64,000 nucleotides of DNA from a bacterium. Its GTDB lineage: Bacteria; CLD3; SB21. The first letter of the stretch is position 1; every line of letters begins with the position of its first letter. Below the pieces are notes generated by a model. The model saw only the letters and a program-made list of their open reading frames with translations. It did not search any database and was not told where the DNA came from. Location of the stretch: NCBI GenBank assembly GCA_013360215.1, contig JABWCP010000001.1:24193-88192 (forward strand). Direction: 5' to 3'. A program made the position numbers and the translations under genes. Positions 4,797 to 31,400 of this stretch are shown piece by piece.

Positions 4797-5562
4797 GAAT
4801 TCTTGTATAACCAAATTTCACAAAAACTTCTTTGGCTGTATCCGAATAAATAAATTCAAAGCATTGCCGGGCCTCCGACTTATCACTTAATAAAGCAGCA
4901 CTTTGTATGATCGGATTATACAGTGTCGAATCAACGATACGATAGTATCCTTTCAAACCCGTCGGTGCACTCAATACTGATGACAACGCTGTCAACCCTA
5001 TATCCGCCGTTCCGGTTGTAATGTACTGATTCACCTGGGATATATTTTCACCGAAAATCAGTTTATCCTTCACGCGTTCGTACTTTCCGGATTTTTTCAT
5101 CGCGTCCATGGCGGCCTTACCGTATGGTGCCAATGCAGGGTCAGCGATAGCAATGTGACGAATTTCGGCTTGGTCAACAGAACCCATTGCATCGTCGGAG
5201 TAAAGCGTCCTAACAGACCAAGCGACCAATTGACCTTGGGCATATGAACGCGGGCGCATACGCGTCAATTTCTTTTCATATAAAATATTTGGAAATACCG
5301 TATCGGCGGATAAAAAAATATCATAGGGTGCGCCGTGTTCGATCTGAGTCGCAAGTTTACCCGATGCGCCGGAAATGATCTCTACGCGAATTCCGGTTTG
5401 TTGCGTGAATATCGCCATCAAAGCCTTAGTTGCGGGACTTACATTGCTAGCGACGGCAATACGTACCGACGACTGCGAATGTAATTCGAAGAAGCTCAAT
5501 ACCATCACCATACACAAATTGACAAAGAGATTTTTGATCAAATGCTGTAACGAAGCGGGCAT
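4789..5562 (-). CDS. modA: Molybdate ABC transporter periplasmic substrate-binding protein
   Basis: N-terminal signal-like segment, then the ModA-like motifs ISGASGKLATQIEHGAPYDIFLSAD and DKLIFGENISQV. ATG verified at 5560-5562. Confidence 0.85.
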   Translation of the reverse strand: MPASLQHLIKNLFVNLCMVMVLSFFELHSQSSVRIAVASNVSPATKALMAIFTQQTGIRVEIISGASGKLATQIEHGAPYDIFLSADTVFPNILYEKKLTRMRPRSYAQGQLVAWSVRTLYSDDAMGSVDQAEIRHIAIADPALAPYGKAAMDAMKKSGKYERVKDKLIFGENISQVNQYITTGTADIGLTALSSVLSAPTGLKGYYRIVDSTLYNPIIQSAALLSDKSEARQCFEFIYSDTAKEVFVKFGYTRIHE

Positions 5563-5746
5563 TCGTTAATTACTTTTTTAAAATCATTGATGATGACAAC
5601 GCTCATTAAGGCCGATCTGAAATTACAAATTTAAGAGATTAATCACAACCATAGCTTATTTCGCCTCGCAGCTCAAGTTATTGAAATTTTAACGCTTATG
5701 ATGTTACCTCGAAAATGAAATTGTAAAAATTTATGCTATAATACCC

Positions 5747-5752
5747 GTGAAC
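5747..5752 (+). promoter_or_regulatory. Candidate -10 element (TATAAT) for the radical SAM gene at 5819
   Basis: GCTATAAT lies 67 nt upstream of ATG 5819 in an AT-rich 256-nt divergent intergenic region. No convincing -35 box was found. Confidence 0.2.
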
Positions 5753-5818
5753 GGTCGGTTTCCCTTGCGAACGCTAAAAGTGCGTCGTATATTTAGATGA
5801 AGACATTACTTCACACGC

Positions 5819-6826
5819 ATGACCACTTCGCCTACTTTAATACAAAAACGCTTTCAATTTCCTCCGGGTCAAAATCCCTTCATAACCGAAGAACAACGTT
5901 TTTTTTCATATAATCATTACATTCGTTCGCGTTTTGGTCAAAGGATTCATCGTGTTACGGTGGATGCCGGATTTACATGCCCCAACCGCGACGGAACGGT
6001 GGCTTCCGGCGGATGTACATATTGTAACAACGACGGTTTCAGCCCGGCTTCGCAGATTTATCGTGTAAAAAAATACCTTAAGCCTTCAACGCCGGTGCAC
6101 GATCAGATAGCCAACCATATTGATGCAATGAAAAAGCGTTTTAAAACGGATAAGTTTTTCGCGTATTTTCAGGCCTATAGCAATACGTATGCGCCGGTGG
6201 ACGAACTCGAAACGCTCTACCGAGAAGCCCTCCGTCATCCGGATATTATCGGTCTTGTCGTTGGGACACGTCCCGATTGTGTGGACGAAGAAAAGCTCCA
6301 GCTTTTACAGTCCATAGCCGAAACTCATTACGTCAGTATCGAATACGGTTGTGAATCCATATACGATAAAACATTACAATGGGTAAATCGCGGACATGAC
6401 TTTGCCTGCTTTATAGACGCGGTCGAAATGAGTGCGGGACGTAATTTGGATGTGGCCGCACATATTATTCTCGGTTTTCCGACCGAAACACGGGACGAGA
6501 TGCTTGCGATGGCTGATGCAATAAATCGCTTACCGGTAGATTTTATAAAGATTCACAACCTCCACATTGTTGCCCAAACGCCACTCGCCTTTCAATACAA
6601 AAAGTCACCTTTCCCTGTGTTTGAGCAACACGAATATGGCATGTTAGTATGTGATTTTCTTGAAAAATTGTCTCCTAACATTTGCATTCAAAGATTATAT
6701 GGCGATGCCCCGCGCGATATGCAAATCGCTCCCCGGTGGTCCACAACCGGCCAGGATATGAATCTTTGGGTTCAGGCCGAGTTGACACGTCGTCAGTCGT
6801 TTCAGGGTATTCGTACAACTGAATGA
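5819..6826 (+). CDS. TIGR01212-family radical SAM protein (YhcC-like)
   Basis: Cys triad CPNRDGTVASGGCTYC with a conserved YhcC-like N-terminus. ATG verified at 5819. Confidence 0.75.
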   Translation: MTTSPTLIQKRFQFPPGQNPFITEEQRFFSYNHYIRSRFGQRIHRVTVDAGFTCPNRDGTVASGGCTYCNNDGFSPASQIYRVKKYLKPSTPVHDQIANHIDAMKKRFKTDKFFAYFQAYSNTYAPVDELETLYREALRHPDIIGLVVGTRPDCVDEEKLQLLQSIAETHYVSIEYGCESIYDKTLQWVNRGHDFACFIDAVEMSAGRNLDVAAHIILGFPTETRDEMLAMADAINRLPVDFIKIHNLHIVAQTPLAFQYKKSPFPVFEQHEYGMLVCDFLEKLSPNICIQRLYGDAPRDMQIAPRWSTTGQDMNLWVQAELTRRQSFQGIRTTE

Positions 6827-6866
6827 TCATCTGAATTATTTGTTCTTTGCTTTGCTACTTACCACT

Positions 6867-6905
6867 GCGTTACGGTTTACTCTGTAACGCCAAAACCGTA
6901 GGAGG
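6867..6905 (+). promoter_or_regulatory. Leader with two mutually exclusive hairpins next to a strong Shine-Dalgarno site (AGGAGG, 6900-6905)
   Basis: gcgttac (6867-6873) pairs with gtaacgc (6884-6890). Alternatively acggttt (6872-6878) pairs with aaaccgt (6893-6899), which directly abuts the SD. The ATG is at 6911, a 5-nt spacer. Confidence 0.3.
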
Positions 6906-6910
6906 TCTCC

Positions 6911-8071
6911 ATGATAAGCCAAAAAACGATCGAACGGTTATCTAAAATCGGCAGCAGAGATTTTTTTATCACCAGTTTATATCTCAATTTGGATCATACA
7001 CAGAAACACGGTCAATACAAAATCGCTCTGAAAGATCTGCTGAAAGACCGTCGCCATCGTCTGGATGAATTTCGTAAGAATAAAAAAATATCCAAGGAAC
7101 AGATCAAATCGCTCGAAGATGATTTTGTTCGAATTGAAAATTATATCCAGCACGAATTTGTCAGCAAAGATTCCGGAAAAGGATTGGCCATTTTCAGCTG
7201 CAGCGCTACGCATTTCTGGGAAATTCTCGAATTGCCTCAACCGGTTCCCAATCATCTCAATGCCGATTTTGATCCCAATATCCGCATTCTAAGCGAATTA
7301 TTATGCGATTACCGTCACTATGCCATCGCTCTCGTTGATAGCAGCAAAGCTAAAATCGTTGATGTCAATCTGGGTTTCGTTCGTGAAGTGTGGTCTGTCG
7401 AACATGCGATAACCGGCAAAACCAAATTTGGCGGCGTGGATGGCACCCAAGAGCGTAATGCCGAGCGAGCGCACGATGAATCTGTTCATAAACACTTTAA
7501 GGTTGTGGCGACCGAGGTTGAAAAAGTCTTCGATCACAGCGACCATATGTGGCTTATCCTCGGCGGACGGCAAAATTTCCTACCACAGTTCGAGTCTCTT
7601 CTCTCCGCCCCGGTTCGTAAAAAAATTGTCGGCCACATCGTGATTGATCCGGAGGCATCGCTCAACGAAGTTTTGGGCAAAGCGTACACGATCGCCGAAG
7701 AAGCCGAAGCCGCCCATGAAAAAGAAATTATCGAACAATTACGCGGCGAAGCCAGTAACGGCGGTAAAGGAATTTTTGGTCTACAACCTACTCTGCAAAG
7801 CCTCCGCAAAGGCGGCGTAAGCACGCTTGTAGTGACGAAAGGATATCAGGCGCCGGGATTTGTTTGTCATAAATGTTTTTTCATAGGTACTCCTGAGGAA
7901 AAAGGCAAACACGATACTTGCCCGATCTGTTCCGGACCAGCACACAACGTCGAAGATGTCGTCGAAGAGGCTATTACTTTTGCTTATATGCAAGGATGTA
8001 AAGTAGAAACCACCAATGAAAATTCGCGCATGCGTATCATGGGTGATTTTGGAGCGCTACTTAGGTATTGA
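6911..8071 (+). CDS. Bacterial eRF1/Pelota-like protein (baeRF-type release-factor homolog) with a C-terminal zinc ribbon
   Basis: The C-terminal region aligns with eRF1/aRF1/Pelota domain 3: GIFGLQPTLQSLRKGGVSTLVV, an inserted CHKC...CPIC ribbon, and the terminal MGDFGALLRY (compare GGIxxiLRY). The central region FGGVDGTQERNAERAHDESVHKHFKVVATEV resembles the eRF1 GGQ-loop helix. Confidence 0.6.
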   Translation: MISQKTIERLSKIGSRDFFITSLYLNLDHTQKHGQYKIALKDLLKDRRHRLDEFRKNKKISKEQIKSLEDDFVRIENYIQHEFVSKDSGKGLAIFSCSATHFWEILELPQPVPNHLNADFDPNIRILSELLCDYRHYAIALVDSSKAKIVDVNLGFVREVWSVEHAITGKTKFGGVDGTQERNAERAHDESVHKHFKVVATEVEKVFDHSDHMWLILGGRQNFLPQFESLLSAPVRKKIVGHIVIDPEASLNEVLGKAYTIAEEAEAAHEKEIIEQLRGEASNGGKGIFGLQPTLQSLRKGGVSTLVVTKGYQAPGFVCHKCFFIGTPEEKGKHDTCPICSGPAHNVEDVVEEAITFAYMQGCKVETTNENSRMRIMGDFGALLRY

Positions 8072-8100
8072 CCTCATGATGAGTTTATTATATGTTTTAA

Positions 8101-8130
8101 AGGTAAGTTAAACGGCTTACCTTTTTTTTT
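8101..8130 (+). terminator. Rho-independent terminator after the eRF1-like gene
   Basis: aggtaag / cttacct stem with an 8-nt loop, followed by a T9 run. Confidence 0.55.
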
Positions 8131-8148
8131 AAACAAACACGATTAGCT

Positions 8149-9429
8149 ATGACCAACACACGCTCTGTATTTCTTACGATCTTTGTTCTATGTATCACAC
8201 AAGCCCAAAGTACCAACGGCCAAGATTTAGATCACATCGAAAAATTCAACAGCGTAAAATCCTTATTTACTTCGCGTTGCATTTCTTGCCACGGTGGTGA
8301 TGAACCGGTGGCCGGTCTACGGCTTGATCGCAATCTCTATGCACAGATCGTCAATGTTCCCAGTAACGGCAATCCCGGCTTACATCTCATTCAACCCAAC
8401 TCTCCGGAATCCAGTTACCTTTATCGAAAAGTAGCAATGCAACCGAACGAATTACCCTTTGCGGATGATCCCATGCCGCTGGACGATGTTCCGTTAAGTT
8501 CTTCTGAACTGCAAATCATACGAGAATGGATCGTCTCATTTGATCCGGCCTTATGGCCTGCGGAAAATCAAAATAGCTCGATTGTTCAAAATCCTGCTTC
8601 AGAGATCATACCAAAGTTTTTGGCTACACAATTGATCAATATGCCCACGACACAAACATTGGGTAACCGTAGTGCGGAATTTCGCATCATGCACCGTTTT
8701 GGCTTGATCAACGGCGGTCCCGACGGAGGAAATACGTATGGAGGTTTTTTTGGCATGGATGCAGGTGCTATAACAAGTATCAACCTTTCCATAGCTGTCA
8801 CGAATAATGCGGATATTCTGCTTCGGCGTACTGGAACCAATAAAGATTTTGAATTGGGCGTCAAATACGTGCCGTTTCATTTCAACGAACGTTTTCCGAC
8901 GGATATCGGTTTTTTTGGAAGCGTAGACTGGATTAGCCGGGATGACGTGCCCGCGCGTCATAAATTCTCACCTAATCTCCAAATGATGATCGGTAGCCGC
9001 CCATTTGACAACCTGAGCATACTCGTAGTGCCCGGAATCGCCTTTAAAAGCAATCACAATGCTACGATCACCAAAACGATCAATGATACTACAACCCAAG
9101 CCTATCGCGATACGCGGGCTACTACGGCTATAGGACTGGGGGCGGAATATCTGATAGGCCGAGGCTATGCGATTTCAGGTGAATACATTCCCCGTCTCGG
9201 AGGTTATAAAGGAAATTCGTTTTCAAACGATCGCAGGTTTGATAATTGGAGCCTTGCTTTTTCATACAAAGTTCGCCTCCACGTATTTCAGCTTTTAGTT
9301 TCCAATACCCAAACGATGCATACCACTCAATATTTGCCCGGAAGTTCAACTATTACCAAGAATGCATTATACAATAAGGGCTGGAATTTTCACTTCGGAT
9401 TTAACATATACAGGCAATTCAAATGGTAA
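8149..9429 (+). CDS. Secreted protein: N-terminal mono-heme cytochrome-c domain (planctomycete PSCyt1-like) fused to a predicted outer-membrane beta-barrel
   Basis: Signal peptide, then CISCHGG...GLRLD...SSSELQIIREWI (a CxxCH heme site). Then approx 300 aa of alternating amphipathic strands ending YRQFKW with a C-terminal aromatic residue. Confidence 0.5.
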   Translation: MTNTRSVFLTIFVLCITQAQSTNGQDLDHIEKFNSVKSLFTSRCISCHGGDEPVAGLRLDRNLYAQIVNVPSNGNPGLHLIQPNSPESSYLYRKVAMQPNELPFADDPMPLDDVPLSSSELQIIREWIVSFDPALWPAENQNSSIVQNPASEIIPKFLATQLINMPTTQTLGNRSAEFRIMHRFGLINGGPDGGNTYGGFFGMDAGAITSINLSIAVTNNADILLRRTGTNKDFELGVKYVPFHFNERFPTDIGFFGSVDWISRDDVPARHKFSPNLQMMIGSRPFDNLSILVVPGIAFKSNHNATITKTINDTTTQAYRDTRATTAIGLGAEYLIGRGYAISGEYIPRLGGYKGNSFSNDRRFDNWSLAFSYKVRLHVFQLLVSNTQTMHTTQYLPGSSTITKNALYNKGWNFHFGFNIYRQFKW

Positions 9430-9830
9430 AAGAAATCAAATTATTTTCGTTACTCGTTTTTGTAATGATTTTGTTATCGGCATGCGGCGAATTGAAAGAG
9501 GAATCTCAGCCGACGTTATTAGTACCGACAGATGTGCAGTCTATATTTAATGATCAATGCGTCGGTTGCCACTCCGGCTCTTCCCCTGCGGGATCGCTTA
9601 ACTTGTCCGTGGGTAATGCATATACCCAATTGATCAATGTCACAAGTACTATCGAACCGACATTAAAGCGCGTCGTACCGTCGGATACTGCAAATAGCTA
9701 TCTTGTGGATAAAATTATGGGTACACAAACAGTTGGAGAACGTATGCCGGATGGTGGGCCTTATTTGTCGGCAGCTCAAATGAACATTATCAAATTGTGG
9801 ATTCAAACCGGTGCGGAGGCCAGACCTTAA
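9423..9830 (+). CDS. Lipoprotein with a mono-heme cytochrome-c domain (PSCyt1-like), paralogous to the N-terminus of the upstream gene
   Basis: Lipobox LLSAC. CVGCHSG...SLNLS...AAQMNIIKLWIQTGAEA aligns position by position with the upstream cytochrome domain. Overlaps the upstream gene by 7 nt. Confidence 0.55.
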   Translation: MVKEIKLFSLLVFVMILLSACGELKEESQPTLLVPTDVQSIFNDQCVGCHSGSSPAGSLNLSVGNAYTQLINVTSTIEPTLKRVVPSDTANSYLVDKIMGTQTVGERMPDGGPYLSAAQMNIIKLWIQTGAEARP

Positions 9831-9875: not shown

Positions 9876-11540
9876 TTATTTCATTAGAACTGTTACCACA
9901 GTCCAATATTTGACCGGCACACCACCGGACAAACCCTGTTCGAATAGCCATTGCTTCACAGCGGCGATCGCGGCGTCATTGATCATCTGATCCCAGTCTT
10001 TGTTACCAATGCGTTTGGAAACGTAAATTTCTTCAGGCTTTCCATCTGTTCCAACAAGTACACGCATCGAAACAGTGCCATTCAGCTTAGCCTTTTTAGC
10101 AAGATCAGGCATGACGGGGCTGACTTTTTGAAGAGCTTTAGGATTATTATCTAACTCATTGGCCATCTTTGTGGGCACAAAGACCGGTGCCGCAGGCTTA
10201 GATTCTACTGGCTTAGGCGCAGTTCCTGCGGAAGCGGCATTAGTCGTGGACGCATCCGGAGTAGTGGTCGTTATGGTTGCAGCGGCTTCTTTGTTTACGG
10301 TCACGACAGGCTGTTTTACGGTAGCCGCTGCCGCCGTTTTCTTTTGATCTTCTTCTTGTTGCTTTTGCAATGCAAGACGGCGTTCTTGCTCAATACGAAT
10401 TTGCTCCTGCTGTTTGAGCTGTTCTTCAAGTAAAGCTAAACGCTCTTTTTCCTTACGTGCATCTTCGGCTCGTTTTTGCCGCTCCGATTCGGTTAACCCT
10501 GCCCCGCCGGCTTTATCTGTAGGTTTTGCCTGAGCCAATTGTCTTTTTAAATCTTCGATTTCTTTGCGACGTTTTTCTTGCTCTGCTTTAGTATCCGTCG
10601 GTGCATCGGCCGCGATATTTTTAAACTCCAGATAAGATATGTTACCCGTGCTGTACACCGGCGTAAATACGACGAGACCGAATTTGTTATTCTCATCATC
10701 ATCATGGATAAAGCGATCGGCGTTAAAATTATCACCCCAGTCGTTACGTTGTGCGTAAACGACATTTTTGGTATGATTGTATAGATTAAACTCCAGATTA
10801 TTATAAATAGCATTTTTCCCGCTATTTTCGCCGAGCCGTGTATCGCCGATCAGCGGTTTAGAGACGTCCTGCACTAAAACACCATAACGATTGCCCGTGA
10901 TTTCATTGGCATTGATACTTGGCGATGAATTTATTTTGGCGTTAATACCGGCGTAACCGTTATTCTGTATCTGATTGTTGTTAATTTTAGGTGTGGACAT
11001 AATATCGCAAAGGATACCATTCCAATAATTTCCTTCGATACGATTACGAAATATACGCGGCGCGGAGTTGATACAGGTGATACCGTCGTAGGCAAACTCT
11101 ATCACACAGTTCGATAAAATACTGCGGTCTTCACCCCGACGAAATATCAAACCGTACCAGTCGCCCGCCTGAGGTTGAAGTGTGCTTCCCTTCTCACCCG
11201 GATCGGTGAAATTACTGGAGGTAAACCGTATTTGAAATTTTTCCTGACCTTCGGCGCGTAAAATGCCTTCCACAATCAGTTCAGACTTTGCAACGTCAAT
11301 TCCTCCGGCTTCATCATCCTGGTTCGCCATAAATCGGATCAAGGTATTGGGGCGTATGCGCACAGTAATACCCTCCGGTATCGTGACGTCTCCGGTAACG
11401 GTAATCACGCCTTCCCATGTTTCGTCTTTTCGAATGACGCCGGATTTGTCCGCAGCCCACACTGAAAAACTGTTCACCAGTACAATCGTGAGCAGTATCC
11501 GCAGCCTGCACCTATGGAATTTAAAGAAATTATACGCCAT
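9876..11540 (-). CDS. Secreted right-handed beta-helix repeat protein with a coiled-coil and low-complexity linker and a TonB C-terminal domain
   Basis: Signal peptide MAYNFFKFHRCRLRILLTIVLVNSFSVWA, then parallel beta-helix (NosD/CASH-like) repeats, then an E/K/Q/R-rich coiled coil and a T/A/P-rich linker. The C-terminus VMPDLAKKAKLNGTVSMRVLVGTDGKPEEIYV...AVKQW matches the TonB_C consensus. The ORF-track start at 11582 is GTG. ATG at 11540. Confidence 0.6.
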   Translation of the reverse strand: MAYNFFKFHRCRLRILLTIVLVNSFSVWAADKSGVIRKDETWEGVITVTGDVTIPEGITVRIRPNTLIRFMANQDDEAGGIDVAKSELIVEGILRAEGQEKFQIRFTSSNFTDPGEKGSTLQPQAGDWYGLIFRRGEDRSILSNCVIEFAYDGITCINSAPRIFRNRIEGNYWNGILCDIMSTPKINNNQIQNNGYAGINAKINSSPSINANEITGNRYGVLVQDVSKPLIGDTRLGENSGKNAIYNNLEFNLYNHTKNVVYAQRNDWGDNFNADRFIHDDDENNKFGLVVFTPVYSTGNISYLEFKNIAADAPTDTKAEQEKRRKEIEDLKRQLAQAKPTDKAGGAGLTESERQKRAEDARKEKERLALLEEQLKQQEQIRIEQERRLALQKQQEEDQKKTAAAATVKQPVVTVNKEAAATITTTTPDASTTNAASAGTAPKPVESKPAAPVFVPTKMANELDNNPKALQKVSPVMPDLAKKAKLNGTVSMRVLVGTDGKPEEIYVSKRIGNKDWDQMINDAAIAAVKQWLFEQGLSGGVPVKYWTVVTVLMK

Positions 11541-14500
11541 GCTGGGTTGCCTCAAACATTTCATCCAATAATTGGGGTCCACTCTTGAGCAAATTTTTCA
11601 AAATCGCATCTTTTTCGATCGGTACATCATCAAAAGCTTTTACCGGTTTTTTGACCGTTTTTACCTTGGTTTCCGTTTTCTTTTCTGAAATTACTTTTTC
11701 ATTCGGAGTCACCGCTTTTTCCGGTACTTTATCTAACTTAATCTCTTGGGTAAGCTCAGCTTTGATACGCGCACGGACGTCCTCGTCATTGACGGGTTTG
11801 ATATCGGTGGCTTCAGGTGCTTTTTGTTCATAACTCTGAAGTTTTCCCACGACATCGTCCACATCAACATCCGTACCGGCCGTAAGCTGTTTTAGGCGTT
11901 CAATACTCGTCTCGTAAAGGTCAATCAGTTCCGATGTGACGCGTAATTCGCCCTCATTCATTTTTTCGGCGACCGTTTCCATCGGTTTGACAAGGTTACT
12001 TATCTTTTGGAAGCCCAGCATTTTCGCCGAACTGCGAAGGCTATGCGCCGCTTTTTCGATGTCGCGCATGGATTGCCGATGCGTCATATTATTTCGCAGC
12101 GTACTTAGCGCGGCCCCGATAAGCTTGAAATAGGTGGATACTTCCTCTTTAAAAATATCGACGATCTCTTCATCAATTCCGAGTTTCGAAAAATAATTTT
12201 CTTTGGGAGCAGGTTGAGAAACCTCGGCCGGTTTTACGGGTTCGATAACGGGTTCGGGTTTCTTCTCCGGCACTTTAGTTTCAATGCCTTTATGTTTGGC
12301 TAATGATGCGCTGCCGGGAATGGCGCCTGTAAAAGTACCTGAGGCATTAAGCGAATTTTCCAGTTCAAACAACTGCTGCACCACCTGCGTTACATCCGCC
12401 GCTTTTCGGGCCGCAATCGAACGCAGAGCTGTAGTAATGGACTCCAGTAACGTGACTATCGTCGCATCAACTGATATTTCTTTTTCAACGCACCGTTCCG
12501 TGATGAGTTCTACGGCCGCCGACAAACCGCTGATACGTTCAAATCCAAGCATACGCGCCGAGCTCTTGAGACTATGGCTGGTGCGCTCCAGATCGCGAAT
12601 AGCCACGTCGTCAACTAAAGATTGCTTCAGGCGGGCGAACGCCGTATCAAATTTTTTGAAATATTCGGCGGCCTCTTGATTAAAAATATCCAAAATTTCA
12701 GGATCCACCGTATCAAAAGCTGATTCTTCCAACATCAGTTTTCCTTCGACAACCGATGATTCGACTTTTTCAGTTTTCAGCGGCGGTACTACCGTCATTG
12801 TCTTGAGCGCTTCCTTGACCGATGTCTTTTCGGGAACGGGCTTTACCTGCTCTTTGGGAAGTTCGCTTCTTTTTTTCTTGACCGTACGGCGACCGCCCGT
12901 GATGATATCTTTGGGTTCCGTATTAAGGCGTTCGGCAAAAGAAGGGATACGTAACCCATTCAATTCATCATCGGCATCACCGGCTGCCATCATAGCTAAT
13001 AAGGCTTTGGGAACTTCGATTTCTATCGTTTTAGTGTCATCCGTGACCGGCGAAGCGAGTATGGACTGACGATCATCTGCTTTTTTATCAGAGGCTGCTT
13101 TTTTTATCTCTTCCGCCGGTTTTACATCGATCTTGTTTTGTACAACGGTTTCAGCGACAAATTTAGGTTTATCTTCAACAGCCGGCAAAATAGTCTTCGT
13201 AGGTATTACACTTTGTGTACGCGTTTCTTCTTCGATTTGTAAAGTCGAATCCTTGGTATCTTTTTCAATGGGTTCAACTTTTTCCGCTTTGATATGTTGC
13301 GCAATCGGAGAATCGTTAAATTTTGCAACGACCGACTGAAATCCCTCAAGCCAGTCCGTGTTTTGTGCTACTACGGACTTCGGATCGGATATCGGTTTTG
13401 AAGACTCTTTGGGAGTTTTTATTTCCGTTTTTATAACTTCTGGCGCAACTACTTTTGTATGCTCAGATGGTGCGGCGCTTATCTCAGTCGGTTTAGCGGG
13501 TGTTACAAATGCCGTGGCTTGTTTATAATCCGAAAAACGAACCGATTGATCACTGAGCCATCGCCATTCATCGGACTGAATCGTTTGCCCGTTGACTAAA
13601 ATTTCGATACTGCGCGTCGATCGCGTCACAAGGGTGATCAATTCCGCAACGACAGGGCTTTGCGAGTAAACTACTTGTTTGAAAATCTGGAAGACCGCGT
13701 CACAATGGCCGTGCAGTAAATTGATTTTTAATAACCGCGTATTGGTCGACAGGGCACGATATACCTGCAAAAGATCTTTGATTGCTTCGGTGTCATGCGT
13801 AGCTTTTTTAAGACGGGCTAACGCCGACTGCGCCAATTCTAAATTAAACCGCACATCTTCGGCAAATACATTCCAGTCATCGTCTTGTATCGCAACACGA
13901 TCAATAGCGATTTCATTTTCAGAAACAGACTGTGCACTTGAACTTGACACCTGAACCGGCAATTCTGCAGGTTTTTCCAAATTAAATGAACCGGTAAACC
14001 GTTGCTGTAGCCGCAAAATTTCTGCAGGTGCTAGCGATTTTAAATCTGATTTATTGTTTTCGACCTGTTGAATTAAATCGTGCAACACGGCTAAGGCCTC
14101 TGGGTTCAGAGGTTTGTGATTATTATCCGCAATCGCATTCAGCGTTTCTTCGATCCGCTGGGTCGCCTCGGACAATGGCATTGCATTTTGTGTGGCGGCC
14201 TCCGCTCTGAGTTGCGACAAACCATCAGCCATGCTTATCAGAAATCGAGGCCGTGTCAGATTATCCCGCAACGTCTCCCATGCACTATTCAATCGGTCCG
14301 TAGAAAAAACCGACCGGACAGCATTTATGTTTCCTTTCGGCTCATTTTTTTCGGTTGATTGAACAGTTTGTGCAACCGATTTTTCAGGTTGTTTTTTTGT
14401 ACGCCGTGACAGGAATCCGATCATATCACCCACATGATCAAACGCTTCGGATTGCGTTATAGGCGCAACTTCCAGTAGCGAAGATTGCGGTGATGCGGAC

Positions 14501-15075
14501 GTCACCGATGTTTTTTCATGGGTAGGCTCTACACGGGAGGTATCGCGAGAAAAAGAGGGATCGTTTTTAACCACAGGTGAAGCAGTGGGTTCTGCTTTTA
14601 CGTCAGCGGAGATCGGTTTTACCTCATCCTTGGGCGTCCCTTCCGTTGGAGACGGCGTATCTTCTTGCTTGATATACGTTTTTCGTAAGGCCGGCAAATC
14701 GAGCGAAAAACCGATGGTTTGTAAATCGCTATTGAGTTGATCTTGTGAACCGGGTGTTTCTAAAATCTTTTGAAACATCTGAATGATCCGCTCGGAATCA
14801 TTTTCGAGCGTCGTGATCATCTGGCTCATCTTGTAGCCGGACTTTTCTAATTTCTCCAGGTTACTACGCAAAAACGTGGCAACCGGATGGAGCGATGCCA
14901 CGTTGAGAAAAGATTCAACCTGGCGAACCGGCTCTTGCGCTTGTCCGATGGATACGATTATTTTTTTGGTAATACTGAATTCAAGTGGTGCAAAACGATG
15001 TTCGGAAACACTTTTGACATGATTCAGTAATTCCGAAAGATAAAATTCTACGATTTTTCGCGATTTATTGTCCAA
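11530..15075 (-). CDS. Large multi-HPt (histidine phosphotransfer) scaffold protein, ChpA/FimL-like, with no kinase domain
   Basis: Two canonical HPt boxes, LERTSHSLKSSARMLGFERISGL and IEKAAHSLRSSAKMLGFQKISNL, plus an upstream degenerate HPt-like region (YRALSTNTRLLKI, His lost) and long S/T/P/E/K-rich disordered segments. No HisKA or HATPase domains. Annotated start is TTG. Confidence 0.6.
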   Translation of the reverse strand: MDNKSRKIVEFYLSELLNHVKSVSEHRFAPLEFSITKKIIVSIGQAQEPVRQVESFLNVASLHPVATFLRSNLEKLEKSGYKMSQMITTLENDSERIIQMFQKILETPGSQDQLNSDLQTIGFSLDLPALRKTYIKQEDTPSPTEGTPKDEVKPISADVKAEPTASPVVKNDPSFSRDTSRVEPTHEKTSVTSASPQSSLLEVAPITQSEAFDHVGDMIGFLSRRTKKQPEKSVAQTVQSTEKNEPKGNINAVRSVFSTDRLNSAWETLRDNLTRPRFLISMADGLSQLRAEAATQNAMPLSEATQRIEETLNAIADNNHKPLNPEALAVLHDLIQQVENNKSDLKSLAPAEILRLQQRFTGSFNLEKPAELPVQVSSSSAQSVSENEIAIDRVAIQDDDWNVFAEDVRFNLELAQSALARLKKATHDTEAIKDLLQVYRALSTNTRLLKINLLHGHCDAVFQIFKQVVYSQSPVVAELITLVTRSTRSIEILVNGQTIQSDEWRWLSDQSVRFSDYKQATAFVTPAKPTEISAAPSEHTKVVAPEVIKTEIKTPKESSKPISDPKSVVAQNTDWLEGFQSVVAKFNDSPIAQHIKAEKVEPIEKDTKDSTLQIEEETRTQSVIPTKTILPAVEDKPKFVAETVVQNKIDVKPAEEIKKAASDKKADDRQSILASPVTDDTKTIEIEVPKALLAMMAAGDADDELNGLRIPSFAERLNTEPKDIITGGRRTVKKKRSELPKEQVKPVPEKTSVKEALKTMTVVPPLKTEKVESSVVEGKLMLEESAFDTVDPEILDIFNQEAAEYFKKFDTAFARLKQSLVDDVAIRDLERTSHSLKSSARMLGFERISGLSAAVELITERCVEKEISVDATIVTLLESITTALRSIAARKAADVTQVVQQLFELENSLNASGTFTGAIPGSASLAKHKGIETKVPEKKPEPVIEPVKPAEVSQPAPKENYFSKLGIDEEIVDIFKEEVSTYFKLIGAALSTLRNNMTHRQSMRDIEKAAHSLRSSAKMLGFQKISNLVKPMETVAEKMNEGELRVTSELIDLYETSIERLKQLTAGTDVDVDDVVGKLQSYEQKAPEATDIKPVNDEDVRARIKAELTQEIKLDKVPEKAVTPNEKVISEKKTETKVKTVKKPVKAFDDVPIEKDAILKNLLKSGPQLLDEMFEATQHGV

Positions 15076-15091
15076 TGTGTATCATCCATAC

Positions 15092-15122
15092 AAAAAAACC
15101 CTAAAACACGTTTAGGGTTTTT
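15092..15122. terminator. Bidirectional hairpin/terminator between the response-regulator gene and the multi-HPt gene
   Basis: ccctaaa / tttaggg stem, flanked by A7 upstream and T5 downstream. It sits 17 nt before the multi-HPt start. Confidence 0.45.
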
Positions 15123-15146
15123 ACGATTTACGCGATGCTATGGCGT

Positions 15147-16001
15147 TTATTTACCGAGATATTCGTGTACTTTGGCAAGCAAGTCTTCATCATGGAACGG
15201 CTTATTGAGGAAATCCGTCGCGCCGTTGCTGATCGCAGCGTCTTTGTCTTGTGGACTGTCTTTACCGCTCAACACGACGATCGGCACCGTGGCAAAATAT
15301 CCGCCTGATTCACGCAACGCTTTCATCACTTCAACACCGGTCATATCAGGCAACATCATATCCAGAAGAATCAGACTGGGCTGCATCTCTTTAGCTTTGT
15401 TGATCGCATCTTCGCCTTTCATGGCCGACGTCAGATTGTAATTATCATTCTCCAACGCGATCTCAACCATTTTTTGAATCACGATACTGTCATCCACGAC
15501 AAGTATCTTTCGACCGCCGGCCGACGCAGAAGCGGCCGGAGCTACCGGTTTGGGCGCCGCTTTTTCTACTTTGGGTTCCGGTTTGGGTTCGACCTTAGGC
15601 GAATCCATTGAACCCAAAATGTCGGTTTCTTCTTTTTTAGGCACAGGCTTGGGTTCCGGTGCTTTTTCAATTTTCGGCTCCGGTTTCGGTTCTGCTTTAG
15701 GTTCCGGCTTCGGTTCCGCTTTCGCTTTAGGCACTTCTTCTTTGACGGCTTTCTTCGACGGCGCTTTCTCTTTCGCCGGTTTAGCCGCCGGAGCAGGAGC
15801 ACCGCCGGATATCAATTTTTCAGCAGATAGTTTTTGTAAAATTTCTTCGACCAACGTTGCATCGCGATCCAGTTTTTCTGCGATATCGGCCACATTGCGT
15901 TTACCGTCAACAGAAAACAAAACACGCCATTCAATTTTTTTCAACAGAATGGTTTCAACTTTTTCTCGTAAGTCTTTTACTCTGGAGTAAACTGCGTCCA
16001 C
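15147..16001 (-). CDS. Response regulator: N-terminal wHTH-like domain, Pro/Lys/Glu-repeat linker, C-terminal receiver (REC) domain
   Basis: C-terminal REC: KILVVDDSIVIQKMVE...LILLDMMLPDMTGVEV...TVPIVVLSGK. The linker carries AEPKPEPK tandem repeats. GTG start. Confidence 0.7.
   Translation of the reverse strand: MDAVYSRVKDLREKVETILLKKIEWRVLFSVDGKRNVADIAEKLDRDATLVEEILQKLSAEKLISGGAPAPAAKPAKEKAPSKKAVKEEVPKAKAEPKPEPKAEPKPEPKIEKAPEPKPVPKKEETDILGSMDSPKVEPKPEPKVEKAAPKPVAPAASASAGGRKILVVDDSIVIQKMVEIALENDNYNLTSAMKGEDAINKAKEMQPSLILLDMMLPDMTGVEVMKALRESGGYFATVPIVVLSGKDSPQDKDAAISNGATDFLNKPFHDEDLLAKVHEYLGK
15560..15800. repeat. Short tandem nucleotide repeat encoding (E/A/V)PKP(E) units in the response-regulator linker
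   Basis: Reiterated units such as aaaccggagccgaaa and gaaccgaaaccggag. The mirror-frame + strand ORF (GSGLGS-rich) is a translation artefact of the same repeat. Confidence 0.4.
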
Positions 16002-25436: not shown

Positions 25437-28400
25437 ATGCGACAATTACGTTTTTTTATTCTGCTGATATTTACCGCCATACCGCTTGCCTTCGCTCAGA
25501 GTGACAGCATCACAATATCCGAAGTGATGTTTAGTACAAGTAATACATTGGACTTCATTGAACTTTATAACTACAGTAAGACACAAACTATTGATCTCGC
25601 TAAATACATAATTACGGATGGTGCGGGCAATAATGACTCCGATCGGATCAGTAGTGCCGGTGAGGGCTTACTTTTATATCCGGGCCAATTTGCCATTCTC
25701 CTTGACCCCGATTACTTTTTACCGCCCAACGCTTCCGGACGTGTTTACGATATTTCCATTCCGGATACTGCACGCATCGTCACAATTGATACTAACCAAA
25801 CCGGCGGTTTTGTTCTCGGAAACGGATCGTTAAGTAATACAACCGCAGAAACAATTCACTTAATCAAGGTACAATCCGGAATTCCGCGTGACACAATAAG
25901 TCGTTATACCTATTCATTAGGTAACAACACCTCATATAGCGATGAAAAAATCACCTTAAACAATGATAACAATTCATCCAATTGGACGAATTCGATTTAC
26001 CTGAACGGTACACCGGGTGCGCCGCCGGAGACGAATCTTTCGATCAACGATCATCGCATGATCTTCACACCACCTGATCCGCTCACCGGAGCAAGCGTGA
26101 CCATCGGTGCTATCGTAACCAACAAAGCGATTACTACGAGCGATTCATTTCGTGTGCTCTTTTATCTGGACGCCGATAAAAATGGAACAGCGGATGTTTC
26201 CGAACTTCTGGATTCGGTTTCCTATAACGGGTCACTACCCCGCAATACGTCCGACACGATTTTTTTTACAACATCTTCGATAGCCTCCGGTATCAATTAT
26301 TATATAGCCCGTATCGGTTCGATTTATCCTTATGCCGATACTGTTTTATCCGATCAATCGCTACGCGATTCCGTACAAACGACTCCGGCCTATAACGTAT
26401 CATGGTCTGCTTCTTCTGTTTTTTCACCGAGTTCACCGACCACCGGTGATACCGTTACCTATGCGCGTGCGATGTACAATACAGGTATCGCCGACATCAC
26501 TCACTTTGCCGCTTATTTGTACATAGATCAAAACCATAACGGGATGGTCGAAACCGGTGAAAAGGTCGATTCGTCAAATTATAACGATATCCTGCCAAGC
26601 GGTGATTCGGTGGTCATTTATTTTACGATCCCGGACGTCCAACGCGGAAAGCTGAATCTATTATTAGACTTGCCGGCCGATTCTTTAGGTCCTGTGCCGG
26701 ACGAACAACCGGCCGATAATCGGACATCCGATTCTGCCAATATCCGTGCGGCCATGAGCTTAACCCTCACATCGGCCAGTGCGCTTAAGCCGTCGTATAA
26801 TTACATCGCCGATACCATGGCGATAAAGGCTGTCGTACACAATAACGGAAGCACAACCGCGAGCGGTTTTTCTGTGATGTTGTATCACGATGCAAACACC
26901 GACGGATTGCCCGACACGAACGAACGCGTGGATTCTGTGCGCTATACATCGTCATTGGATGCAACGGTAAGTGATTCCATCACTTTGTATTGGCTACCGA
27001 CGTCTGAAGGTAACGTCTCGCTCATCGTCAAACTCGACTCGTCCACAGTCCAACCCCTGACGGATGAAGATGGATCCGATAATACACATACGCTGAATGC
27101 ACTCATCTACCCTCGCCCGGATTCGATCACTTTTTCAGAAATCATGTTTGATCCGCTGGGCTCCGAAGATTCTAATGAATTTGTTGAATTGTACAATTTT
27201 GGCTCACACGCTGTTGATCTGCTCAATTGGCAGATCGCAGACAGCCTTGGACATGATGCGATACAAGATGCCGGAAATGGGACGGTCTTACAAGCGGGAC
27301 AATATGCCATCGTATTCGAAAATGAATACGCACTGAATACAGGTCGTTATACATCGCGTATCCCATCGTCGGCATTAGTCTTAACGATCAACGGCTCCAC
27401 CTTTGGCAGCAGTTCAAGCGGATTGGTGGGAACCTATCCGAAACAATTATTTCTGGTACGCAGTTTAGGTGATACGATCTCAACGTACCGCTATTCCCTC
27501 GACAATACCGAAGGACATTCCGATACAAAAATCAATCCCTCGGAAATCAACACGCCCGCGAATTGGGCGAACAGTCTCATCACCGATGGCACACCGGGCG
27601 CTCATGCGGAAGTCAACTTGTCACTCCTCGGTCAGCGTTTGCGATTTGCGCCTTCTGAAATTCCATCCGGTACTCAAACTGTGATATCCGTGACTGTTAA
27701 AGATTCCGGCATCGCACCGGTGAATATTTTCAAAATCGCTATGTATCATGATACTAACCGAAACGCCATTCCTGAACCGGAAGAAATCATTGATTCCCTG
27801 GTATTTTCAGGGCAATTGTATTTCGGTGACAGCGTGATATTTACGGCAAATACACCGGCGCTCTCCTATGGCGTACATTATTTTATTGCACGTATATCGC
27901 AAGGCGAGGTCTCGCCGTACGGTGATACGCTCTACTATAACGATATGCTCGCCGACAGTATAAAGACAAAACCATCCGGCGACATCGCACTGAATCGAGG
28001 ACGCCTGATATTGGGCGAAATTGCAACGCGAGGTAATTCCTTTTCGATCGGTGCGTACGCGTACAATATGGGCACGCAACCCGTTCAATCGTTTACCGTT
28101 CGATGGTATGAAGATCGCGACGGAAATTATACTACCGCACCGGAGGAACGAATAGACTCCAACACATATACCGGAAATCTTTTGCCCGGAGATTCAACCT
28201 TTTTACAGATCAACTACCCCAATGCGACCTACGGTAAACATCGAATTATGGCTGAAGCTATATCATCCTCCGTACAGCCTATTGCCGATGAAGAGCCGTC
28301 AAACAATCTACTTGTGGATTCGATTGAAGCCGGAGCACGCCCACGCGATATTCTAATCAGCGAATTTATGTATCTTGCCGTAACGGATAGTATCCCCGAG

Positions 28401-31400
28401 TGGATCGAAATCTACAATTCTTCTGCGCTCTCCATATCACTGATGAATTGGCAGCTGTACGACAAAACATCCGATGTCGTATTGACGGATCGAAGCGACA
28501 CTTTGCACGCCGGCCAATTTGGAATCATCGTCAAAGATTCTGTCGTGTTTCACAAAAAATACGGTAACAAGTTATCAGACGTTCTATATATCTATCCGCC
28601 CTCCATGCCGAGTCTTAATAATACCGGCGGCGATATTATCAAACTGAGCACACCCGCGGGACTTACCGTGGACAGTCTTAACTATCTGACATCATGGGGC
28701 GATGATGAGGGTATCAGTCTAGAGCGCAAACTAAATGATAGTGCATCGTTCAGTATGAATAACTGGACGCTTAGCAGCGACCCTTCCGGCGGTACCCCGG
28801 GTACAAAGAACACAGCTACACCACAGCTTCGCGATCTGTCCATCACTTCGCACGACATTCTCTGGACACCCGCTTATCCGACGCTAGGAGAAATTTTTCA
28901 AGTCAAAGCTACTGTACGAAATCTAGGCATTACCTCGAGCGGGGCATCCACTATTTTACTCTATGCCTACAGCGGTCATGATTCCACATTATTACAGACA
29001 ACGAATTCGCCCGCCATATTACCCGGTGATTCTTTGGTGATCGTCTCATCCCCGATCACCAACGAACCTCAAACCTATGTCGGCATTCAAATTGATTACG
29101 CGGAAGATGAACGCTTATCCAATAACTTTGCTAAACGCTTCGTACCTGCTGCCACACCAAGGCAAACGGTGGTCATCAATGAAATCATGTACAAACCCGG
29201 AACCGGACATACGGAATGGATCGAACTTTACAACCGCTCCCAAAACGCTGTGGATCTGCGTTCATGGCGTATATCCGACGGCAATGCCGACCTAACCGCA
29301 CCGGCTACTGCTAAAACTATAACCACTCAAAGTGTCATACTTCAACCGGATAGTTTTATCATCATCGCCAAAGATTCCGCTCAATTTTCATCGCAGTATG
29401 GAACACCTTTGCACGCCGTTTATCTGAGCAGTATGCCTGCACTCAATGATCCGGGTGATATGATCACAATACAAGACAGCTTAGGCGGCATTGTGGATAG
29501 TCTTGTGTATCTATCCGGTTGGGGCGGCAGTTCGGATCGTACATTGGAACGACGTTTCTATGATTCCGTTTCGTATTTAACTTCCAACTGGCTTAGCTGT
29601 GAAATCCCTATCGGCGCAACTCCGGGCCACCCCAACAGTGTCAAGCCATTGCATCATGACTTATCTGTAAAGGCATCTCCCTTGCGCGTAACGCCTTCGT
29701 ATCCACGTATCGGCGAAGCATTTACAATAACTGCACCGATATACAATCAGGGTTTAGAACCCGTGAATGATGCCTCACTGCGATGGTTGCGTATTCGCGC
29801 ACAACATGATACAGTGATTCTCTCAGACGAGATCATCGGTACGTTGAATGCCGGCGATTCATTAAAAATTTCTTATTCGGACACGGCACGCCAAATCGGT
29901 GATTCCATCGTAGCGCTTATCCTAAGTGGATCGGACGAACGTACACTCAACAATAAATCCGCAGTTCCTCTGATAACCTCCACTCGTCGTAATGCACTGG
30001 TGATCAATGAAATCATGTACGATCCCGGTTCGAACAGACCCGAATGGATCGAACTGTATAACCCGGGTGCGGATACTATTGATCTTAAAAACTGGCGCAT
30101 GGCGGATGAATCCACCATCGCAAATCCTAAAACTTTTGCTGGTACTTCCTTACGTATTCCGTCACAACATTACGTCATCATTACCAAAGATGCATCCGCA
30201 TTAGCCCTTACTTATCCGTTACTATCATCGCCCGTCGTGACCATGTCCTCGTTTCCCACGCTCAATCAAACCGGTGATTTGATTCTACTGACGGATAGTC
30301 TGAGTGTAACAGTTGACAGTGTGTTTTACGAAAACACGTGGGGCGGTGCGAACGGTTTTTCGATCGAGCGTATCAGCGCAACCGATAACGCCAATTCACC
30401 GAATAACTGGAAAACCTCTGAAGCCAATGCCGGCGCCACACCGGGGGTAATGAATAGCACAACACCGGTGGCTCTGGACCTCAGCATTCGAACGAATGAT
30501 GTATGGTTTGATCCGCCGTTTCCTTCACCGGGCCAACCCGTACAGATCCATATACGCATTCGCAATAAAGGCCTTCAAAACATCACAAACGCAGCGGTAG
30601 TGCGTGTCTATAACGATATCAATAATGATAGTATTCCTCAGATAACGGAGATCATTGATTCTACGATCGTACCGGCTTTATTATCCGGCGATTCGCTGTT
30701 TGTAACCATTCAATGGACAATCCCCGTTTCGGCATCTCGTCGTTTATCCAAAGCACTATCTATGGGATCCCGTAAAATCATTATCCAGCTTGATTTTGCA
30801 GGCGATGAACGCACTGAAAATAACCTCCTATTTACTGCGTTGCCGTTGGGTACGCCGTTTCAGTCTGTCGTGATCAATGAATTTATGTATGAGACGGATA
30901 CTTCACGCACAGAATTTATCGAACTGTATAATCCCGGTACTACCTCATGGGACTTGAAAGATTGGAAAATCGCCGATGGTAGCAGCGTCGTATCTATCAC
31001 CGACGTTTCGGTTTCATTTTTATCAGGCACCTATAAAGTGCTGGCGCCGGACAGTTCATTCTTCCGCAAATTCTCTACGACCCCGGCCTCGTCCGTAATC
31101 ATCGTGCCGGGTTTACCAAGCCTCAATAATACGGGTGACGCCATCCGTTTAGCCGATGATCTCGGTGCAACGGTGGATAGCCTGACGTATAGTAACACAT
31201 GGGGCGGCGCTAAAAATATCAGCGTCGAGCGTATCGATGCCGACGTATCATCGGATGAACCAAACAATTGGACAACGTCCTTAACGACGCAAGGACACTC
31301 AGCCGGCCTTGTCAATAGCATTGTATCGGCTGAGCCCTTTGTCAAACAATCGCTCATCATCAATGAAATCATGTTTAGCCCTATGAGCGGCGAACCGGAG

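Follow-up and report, generated by a model that had tools for sequence, protein, structure and literature searches.

Our study examined a stretch of bacterial DNA of 64 000 nucleotides (nt), hereafter the window (assembly GCA_013360215.1, contig JABWCP010000001.1, positions 24,193 to 88,192), and in particular an open reading frame (ORF) at positions 6911..8071 of its + strand, whose product is, with near certainty, a member of family 10 of the baeRF-1 clade within the Balon/aeRF1 superfamily. The gene is clearly coding, begins with ATG and encodes a three-domain protein of the aeRF1 fold of 386 amino acids (aa), followed by a stop codon. A Shine–Dalgarno (SD) sequence, AGGAGG, was read from the sequence at 6900-6905 (+), 5 nt 5' of the ATG, and a gene matching TIGR01212 (MnmL/YtqA; 5819..6826, +) ends 84 nt upstream and is the probable co-transcribed partner. 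Downstream, 28 nt past the stop, a terminator scan identified a terminator-like hairpin and T run (8099..8134, +) with an 11-pair stem and a 4-nt loop. A preliminary description of this locus, made from the sequence alone, had reported the ORF, several motifs in its product, the AGGAGG site and the 84-nt gap behind the TIGR01212 gene, and all of these were recovered at the same positions: FGGVDGTQERNAERAHDE spans residues 173-190 of the protein, CHKC and CPIC occupy residues 319-322 and 337-340, and LQSLRKGGVSTLVV and the C-terminal MGDFGALLRY are both present. The window holds no second baeRF copy, an Rfam scan of it gave zero RNA family matches, and PADLOC returned no defence-system match for the baeRF protein.

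Membership of family 10 was indicated by the Pfam model PF18854 (baeRF_family10), which scored 77.5 bits against a cut-off of 27.1 (E = 1.7e-21) and aligned residues 122-262 with profile positions 1-142/143, so that the baeRF-type identity and aeRF1/Pelota fold proposed in the preliminary description were borne out. Further Pfam models matched below threshold, namely those of other baeRF families, eRF1_2, eRF1_3 and the VLRF1-type model acVLRF1 (16.9 bits against 27.1). The aRF1/eRF1 equivalog TIGR03676 reached 67.4 bits against a cut-off of 234.7, and all three NCBIfam models for Balon proteins (NF052287, NF052288 and NF052289) were also below their cut-offs, with 59 of 330, 53.1 of 480 and 40.2 of 320 bits. 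This sub-threshold pattern for aRF1 and Balon was repeated in all 19 close relatives that were scored: the MSMEG_1130 and Rv2629 Balon models matched 19/19 and the AOC03_06830 model 18/19, with best E-values of 1e-22, 9e-18 and 6e-18, respectively. TIGR00111 (Pelota/Dom34) gave no match to the query, and only two of the 19 relatives reached 1e-6 with it.

A homologue search recovered 304 homologues at E <= 1e-3, one database protein being 99 % identical, and a search with the family profile recovered 2,021 cluster representatives at E <= 1e-30, a number that rose to 10,105 at E <= 1e-3. Compared with the sequences in the PDB, the family profile matched Msmeg1130 best and from end to end (5.7e-25), and also aRF1 (3e-20), eRF1 (~1e-15), Rv2629 (9e-12), Pelota (3e-10) and the Balon of P. 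urativorans (5.8e-9). The Msmeg1130 sequence, rebuilt from the alignment and used as a phmmer query, found only itself, with no Rv2629, P. urativorans Balon or aRF1 at E <= 0.01. The experimentally defined 'Balon' proteins thus span several very divergent baeRF families, which family 10 bridges to aRF1.

The baeRF-1 clade was defined by Burroughs & Aravind (2019; PMC6514570), who traced it to a single early transfer from archaea and reported that many baeRF families have swapped the zinc ribbon of the C-domain for a two-strand insert, and that most are without the catalytic Gln. The statement in the preliminary description that the bacterial homologues were uncharacterized is out of date, as Balon, Msmeg1130 and Rv2629 have been established by experiment as A-site hibernation factors that act with EF-Tu(GDP), Msmeg1130 being a non-catalytic A-site binder (Helena-Bueno et al., Nature 2024; PMC10901736). 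In the same study, Balon proteins are described as being without NIKS and GGQ; features that they do have are an extended loop at the decoding centre (HP motif), a bL27 trap and an insertion in the C-domain. The working definition of a Balon, an aeRF1 homologue without NIKS and GGQ (PMC10901736 and PMC13324472), also describes our query, which has no NIKS and no GGQ at the aligned site, but which keeps the GG and has a Gln one residue later. In the preliminary description the homology was called correctly, for a family that had already been catalogued, but the work on Balon published in 2024 has in part superseded its functional idea.

The structure of the protein was predicted with AlphaFold2 on a 68-sequence alignment, giving a model with a predicted local distance difference test score (pLDDT) of 92.6 and a predicted template modelling score (pTM) of 0.85, in which the tip loop of the middle domain was the lowest-confidence part (block 171-180, pLDDT 66). 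When the model was searched against the PDB with Foldseek, the top matches were the ribosome-bound Msmeg1130 structures (8v9l_z and 8v9j_z; E 1e-25, template modelling (TM) score 0.79-0.84, root mean square deviation 3.5-3.6 A over ~390 columns), with other Balons (8rd8/8rdw/8v9k) at TM 0.64-0.72, aRF1/eRF1 at TM ~0.5 and Pelota/Dom34 at E 1e-9 to 1e-7 and TM 0.23-0.41. The predicted structure thus superimposes on proteins of the eRF1 fold, so that the outcome by which the preliminary description would have been refuted did not occur. Of the Balon chains 8v9j_z, 8v9k_z and 8rd8_B, the last, from P. urativorans, is still labelled 'Methyl-accepting chemotaxis protein' in the PDB.

These matches place the query among known systems. 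Like the Balon factors (Msmeg1130, 8v9j/8v9l; Rv2629, 8v9k; P. urativorans, 8rd8/8rdv/8rdw), the query is a bacterial protein of three domains with the aeRF1 fold, a C-domain that carries its insertion at the equivalent point and neither NIKS nor a GGQ tripeptide at the aligned site. However, it is only 14-18 % identical to them and falls below all three NCBIfam cut-offs, it has a four-Cys zinc ribbon, the GG and a fixed loop length, and there are no HPF or stress genes at its locus. With aRF1/eRF1 (4af1, 1dt9; TIGR03676) it shares the fold, the domain order, the loop GG, the zinc-binding insert of the C-domain and a C-terminal G-x-LRY, yet it is without NIKS, YxCxxxF and GGQ, has a 3-residue loop insert and gives the lower whole-chain TM of ~0.5. 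Pelota/Dom34 has in common with it the superfamily and the C-terminal domain, and offers a non-catalytic precedent, but is a far weaker match. Within PF18854 itself, the query has the N-M-C architecture and zinc ribbon of the family and differs in its GGx[DE]G[TS]Q loop subgroup, its longer zinc-ribbon spacer (14 against 9 residues) and its extended N-terminal tip.

The N-terminal domain (residues 1-121; 6911..7273, +) was covered by the alignments of the family profile with aRF1 and Msmeg1130, both of which were full-length. Because the residues equivalent to NIKS read K59-I-S-K62 and the YxCxxxF region reads L116-N-A-D-F-D-P122, neither motif being present, stop-codon reading would not be expected for this protein. 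The tip of the helical hairpin, which is the NIKS site in eRF1 (residues 56-64; 7076-7102, +), exceeds that of other family 10 proteins by 4-9 residues in the query clade, and column statistics on this clade-specific extension found Q64 to be invariant and R62 near-invariant in the clade. Such an extension could reach toward the mRNA channel.

The C-terminal domain is of the Pelota type (residues 263-386; 7697..8068, +), ends in GALLRY and matched eRF1_3 over residues 268-386 below threshold, in agreement with the domain-3 C-terminus that had been recognized from the sequence. It retains the ancestral zinc ribbon, C319-H-K-C322 ... C337-P-I-C340 (7865..7930, +), a conserved CxxC...CxxC that had been likened to that of aRF1, and profile alignment indeed located it at the zinc-binding insert site of aRF1, which is also the site of the Cys-free insertion of Msmeg1130, where the latter reads YVGTVGADGSLYADGEIAPHSH. 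A CxxC-(9 to 14 residues)-CxxC arrangement was found in 112 of 120 homologues, the spacer being 14 residues in the query and 9 in most of the family. Across 264 family members the four Cys were 95-99 % conserved, as were G290, G316 and the C-terminal L384-R385, and the zinc ribbon is the most conserved feature of the family. In Balon the insertion is part of the C-domain that binds EF-Tu, and by analogy the likeliest contact with EF-Tu would be the zinc ribbon. With the zinc ribbon both at the EF-Tu-contact site of Balon and so conserved, family 10 may be a good system for studying how the aRF1-aEF1alpha interface became the Balon-EF-Tu interface.

The middle domain (residues 122-262; 7274..7696, +) comprises the Pfam baeRF_family10 region, with a sub-threshold match to eRF1_2 over residues 137-259, and carries the tip loop K172-F-G-G-V-D-G-T-Q-E181 (7424..7453, +), the 'GGQ-like' segment in which the preliminary description saw a resemblance to the GGQ loop of eRF1. 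Pairwise and profile alignments did not uphold this resemblance as far as the Gln is concerned. The GG of the eRF1/aRF1 GGQ aligned with G174-G175 of the query, whose loop reads GGVDGTQ, and was followed by a 3-residue insert, after which the eRF1 Gln aligned with T179; Q180 lies one residue further, at the N-terminus of a long helix (179-209). Conservation was compared between the 23 closest relatives (48-66 % identity) and the next group (n=13, 34-36 % identity). Residues K172, G175, G178, E181, K194 and H195 were invariant in 23/23 of the closest relatives, whereas Q180, which varied more than any other residue in the core of the loop, was kept in 18 (with Lys in three, Asp in one and Glu in one), and Gln occurred in its column in 0/13 of the next group. 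A large sister set, GGWxG[YL][DE]E, shares this loop length and has Asp/Glu in the Q180 column, and in a rough neighbour-joining tree the Gln was apparently gained within the clade, once its most basal member had split off, which suggests that the loop Gln is derived. The peptidyl-tRNA hydrolase capacity that had been considered possible for this protein therefore gained no support from the conservation of Q180 beside its invariant neighbours. What counts in release factors is the backbone of the glycines more than the side chain of the Gln, and the loop glycines G175 and G178 are both among the invariant residues, which leaves some probability to an active protein. In this clade the loop is clearly under selection, but its pattern is better explained by a loop that binds than by the active site of a GGQ.

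Beyond the closest relatives, the loop of family 10 was found to be heterogeneous, with GGW[SA]Q, DDGGQLGKDQ and large Gln-free GGWxGY[DE]E groups (e.g. P0040, P0041, P0141, P0149; P0042-P0084). The GGx[DE]G[TS]Q subgroup that includes the query accounted for 20/266 sampled members and the GGW[SA]Q subgroup for 30/266, the latter being the only one with a well conserved Gln; by helix register this Gln matches the invariant E181 of the query and not Q180, although register matching to the catalytic Gln varies by 1-2 residues and was treated as soft evidence. Should catalysis occur anywhere in family 10, the strongest candidate would be the GGW[SA]Q subgroup. The group with the literal DDGGQLGKDQ is variable in this sequence, and several of its members are labelled Acidimicrobiales. 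Over 264 family members, no position of the loop was conserved, as opposed to the 95-99 % of the zinc-ribbon Cys and C-terminus, and a variable loop with a conserved zinc ribbon and C-terminus is the opposite of what catalytic release factors display. Profile alignment also showed Gly-Gln at the aligned loop position of Msmeg1130.

We therefore lean, with moderate confidence, towards a non-catalytic A-site occupant or hibernation factor that silences and protects ribosomes. A non-catalytic protein is favoured because Q180 is unconserved, because the best match is to Msmeg1130, which itself has a loop Gln, and because the stop-codon motifs are missing. By analogy with Balon, Msmeg1130 and Rv2629, the protein would bind in the ribosomal A site but read no stop codon there, its N-domain being placed at the decoding centre. 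The conserved K-x-G-G-x-x-G-x-x-E loop and a basic/His-rich helix would extend towards the peptidyl-transferase centre yet leave peptidyl-tRNA intact, the zinc-ribbon C-domain would contact EF-Tu, and the outcome would be ribosomes that are silenced and protected. Should this be correct, a zinc-ribbon, aRF1-proximal branch of ~2,000 clusters at 50 % identity (E <= 1e-30) would join the Balon-type hibernation factors, and such a factor would also be placed in an uncultured Bacteroidota lineage.

Several observations weigh against hibernation. An intact zinc ribbon with four Cys stands in the query in place of the Cys-free hairpin or loop of the Balon type, and in the characterized Balons that Cys-free hairpin or insertion, which replaces the aRF1-type zinc ribbon, is said to block the binding of EF-Tu-GTP. 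The Balon NCBIfam scores were far under their cut-offs and no better than the 67 bits of aRF1. The loop keeps its GG and, in most close relatives, a G-[TS]-Q at fixed length, a type of pattern that Burroughs & Aravind linked to active families (PMC6514570). The locus itself is without a stress or HPF gene, the neighbours being MnmL, DUF5777 with a cytochrome c, and an ABC transporter; no match to an HPF seed was found in the window, and among ~94 other family loci HPF adjacency occurred on just one contig (L019 = L046), although a single HPF seed was used and may miss divergent HPFs. Location in a stress-response or HPF (RaiA) operon is frequent for Balons but not universal. Finally, a literature search found no experiment or paper characterizing a family 10 protein.

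The alternative of an active peptidyl-tRNA hydrolase or rescue factor, in which G-G-x-x-G-[TS]-Q would act as an expanded GGQ comparable to the GSQ of Vms1 and the GGxSQ of VLRF-1, seems unlikely. Stalled ribosomes would be entered by such a protein, possibly with EF-Tu delivering it via the zinc ribbon, and the nascent chain would be released, and an archaeal-type release or rescue factor in bacteria would be a real surprise. The idea draws on the alignment of the loop GG with that of GGQ, on a Q180 only one residue off the eRF1 Gln position at the N-terminus of the long helix, on the fixed loop length and G-[TS]-Q of the closest clade, and on a zinc ribbon and overall sequence that are as near to aRF1 as they are to the Balons. 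It has also been published as a conjecture, family 10 having been singled out as keeping a conserved Gln and as a possibly active hydrolase (PMC6514570). The G-[ST]-Q of the query resembles the GSQ/GxuQ motifs of Vms1/ANKZF1 and bacterial VLRF-1 (PMC6514570), but the query is without the N-terminal extension typical of bacterial VLRF-1 and its Gln is not conserved. Against catalysis, Q180 varies beside invariant G175, G178 and E181, gives way to Asp/Glu in the sister group and appears derived in the rough tree. The well conserved Gln of the GGW[SA]Q subgroup would speak for catalysis within the family, yet it aligns with E181; moreover, a loop Gln is also present in the non-catalytic Msmeg1130, and the query has no stop-codon recognition motif. 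A broader version, in which the Bacteroidota-type family 10 proteins are catalytically competent bacterial eRF1s with a Vms1-like loop, an R62/Q64 tip that senses A-site mRNA and EF-Tu-GTP delivery via the zinc ribbon, for which the delivery of aRF1 by aEF1alpha is the comparison, is in our judgement more doubtful again. If true, bacteria would have, next to RF1/RF2 and ArfA/ArfB/tmRNA, a third route of release or rescue, one of archaeal type that is expressed together with an enzyme for the modification of wobble uridine in tRNA.

Less probable still is a non-catalytic rescue role resembling that of Pelota/Dom34, in which the N-tip extension would recognize stalled or mRNA-truncated ribosomes and promote subunit splitting or recycling. 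The fold is common to Pelota, no catalytic Gln would be required, and the 4-9 residues by which the N-tip is extended in this clade, with Q64 and R62 conserved, would suit a recognition element. On the other side, the match to Pelota is much weaker than that to Balon or aRF1, both in Foldseek (E 1e-9) and in the profile search, and no RtcB or other repair or rescue genes were found in the contexts examined. To our knowledge, no ABCE1-like partner is known in bacteria. A Dom34-like action has nevertheless been proposed for baeRF-1 proteins (PMC6514570). The residual interest of this protein lies in its retention of a zinc ribbon at the site that would face EF-Tu, in the N-tip peculiar to its clade and in possible catalysis.

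The gene upstream was further examined for its link with the baeRF gene. The ORF at 5819..6826 scored 320 bits against a cut-off of 180 with TIGR01212, for which the NCBIfam name is tRNA modification radical SAM protein MnmL/YtqA, and the Pfam models Radical_SAM and Radical_SAM_C both matched. The terminator scan of the window found no terminator-like site between mnmL and the baeRF gene. Fifteen related loci were drawn from species-representative genomes, with baeRF proteins 48-65 % identical to the query; 11 are labelled as uncultured Bacteroidota/Bacteroidetes metagenome-assembled genomes and four as 'bacterium' only. In 15/15 of these loci the baeRF gene was immediately preceded by a TIGR01212 gene of the same strand, at a distance of 12-119 nt, while the genes further upstream of mnmL varied; downstream of the baeRF gene, DUF5777 was kept in 11/15 and the small cytochrome c in 10/15. 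The baeRF gene is thus probably co-transcribed with mnmL in this Bacteroidota-labelled lineage. The co-occurrence with TIGR01212, which the preliminary description had proposed as a test, stood within this lineage but went no further, as a TIGR01212 homologue was found in 0/94 other family 10 loci. A radical SAM link beyond the clade was rejected, the radical SAM gene beside P0031 being of an activase-like family and not TIGR01212. We read the mnmL-baeRF10 pair as a lineage-specific, translation-related operon and not as a mechanistic coupling. That the protein works off the ribosome as a tRNA-shaped partner of MnmL, presenting or sensing tRNA or EF-Tu for wobble-uridine modification, is very improbable despite the constant pairing amid varying flanking genes and the unterminated junction in the window, since the pairing is confined to the clade, every characterized relative acts on the ribosome and MnmL apparently needs no partner of this kind in Bacillus, Streptococcus or E. 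coli (YhcC).

The sequence signals around the gene were compared with those of the orthologous loci. An SD core of AAGGAG or GGAGG occurred at the same position in 13 of 15 and was weaker in L006 and L013 (a regular-expression scan gave 12/13). In the window, a core of at least 5 nt preceded only 5 of 49 larger ORFs, but other genes of the orthologous loci also carry SDs (DUF5777 in 6/10, the response regulator in 5/6). The candidate explanation of AGGAGG as an oddity in an SD-poor Bacteroidota genome was rejected for this reason: the lineage uses SDs for a subset of its genes, and the baeRF site is not unusual. An intergenic hairpin at 6867-6890 was likewise rejected as a real element (z = -1.58, not significant). 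In the 90 nt past the baeRF stop of the orthologous loci, no hairpin and T run comparable to that of the window was evident, the next gene usually lying 20-60 nt on.

Neighbourhoods across family 10 were more varied. On the one contig with HPF adjacency, an HPF/S30AE gene lies directly downstream of the family 10 gene, and a general HPF association of the family was rejected on the grounds that this was the only such contig. Other members adjoin GrpE, or Hsp20 with Lon. In five loci (L081, L085, L094, L096 and L104; ~5100-8600) a ClpB/ClpC-type AAA+ chaperone directly follows the family 10 gene, and in all of these except L085 it is followed by a ClpP-like SDH-type serine protease; this proteostasis context is absent from the Balon neighbourhoods quoted from PMC10901736. 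Further neighbours included Sm_multidrug_ex, IF-2B-family and FGGY genes in 6-9 loci, as well as rhomboid and others, and unbiased clustering of the neighbours in the family 10 loci revealed no dominant or universal partner. A minority of contexts (HPF, GrpE, Hsp20-Lon and ClpB/C) echo the stress contexts of Balon (PMC10901736).

The remainder of the window is ordinary chromosome, with genes for LepA, PolA, DsbD, FBPase and an ABC transporter. Immediately after the baeRF gene, at 8149-9830, lie the gene for a DUF5777 beta-barrel protein, which carries a PSCyt1 cytochrome c domain at its N-terminus, and a small cytochrome c ORF that overlaps this gene by 7 nt, a pair with no evident link to translation. 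A 2,234-aa ORF at 25437-32141 encodes a Lamin Tail Domain repeated seven times, CARDB and, at the C-terminus, a FlgD-Ig-like domain, and is probably a large secreted or surface protein unrelated to the baeRF gene. On the minus strand, at 11530-16001, a 1,180-aa protein whose sole Pfam match is Hpt stands beside response-regulator and TonB_C/beta-helix proteins, and this Hpt/response-regulator/TonB_C block is conserved beside the baeRF block in six related loci.

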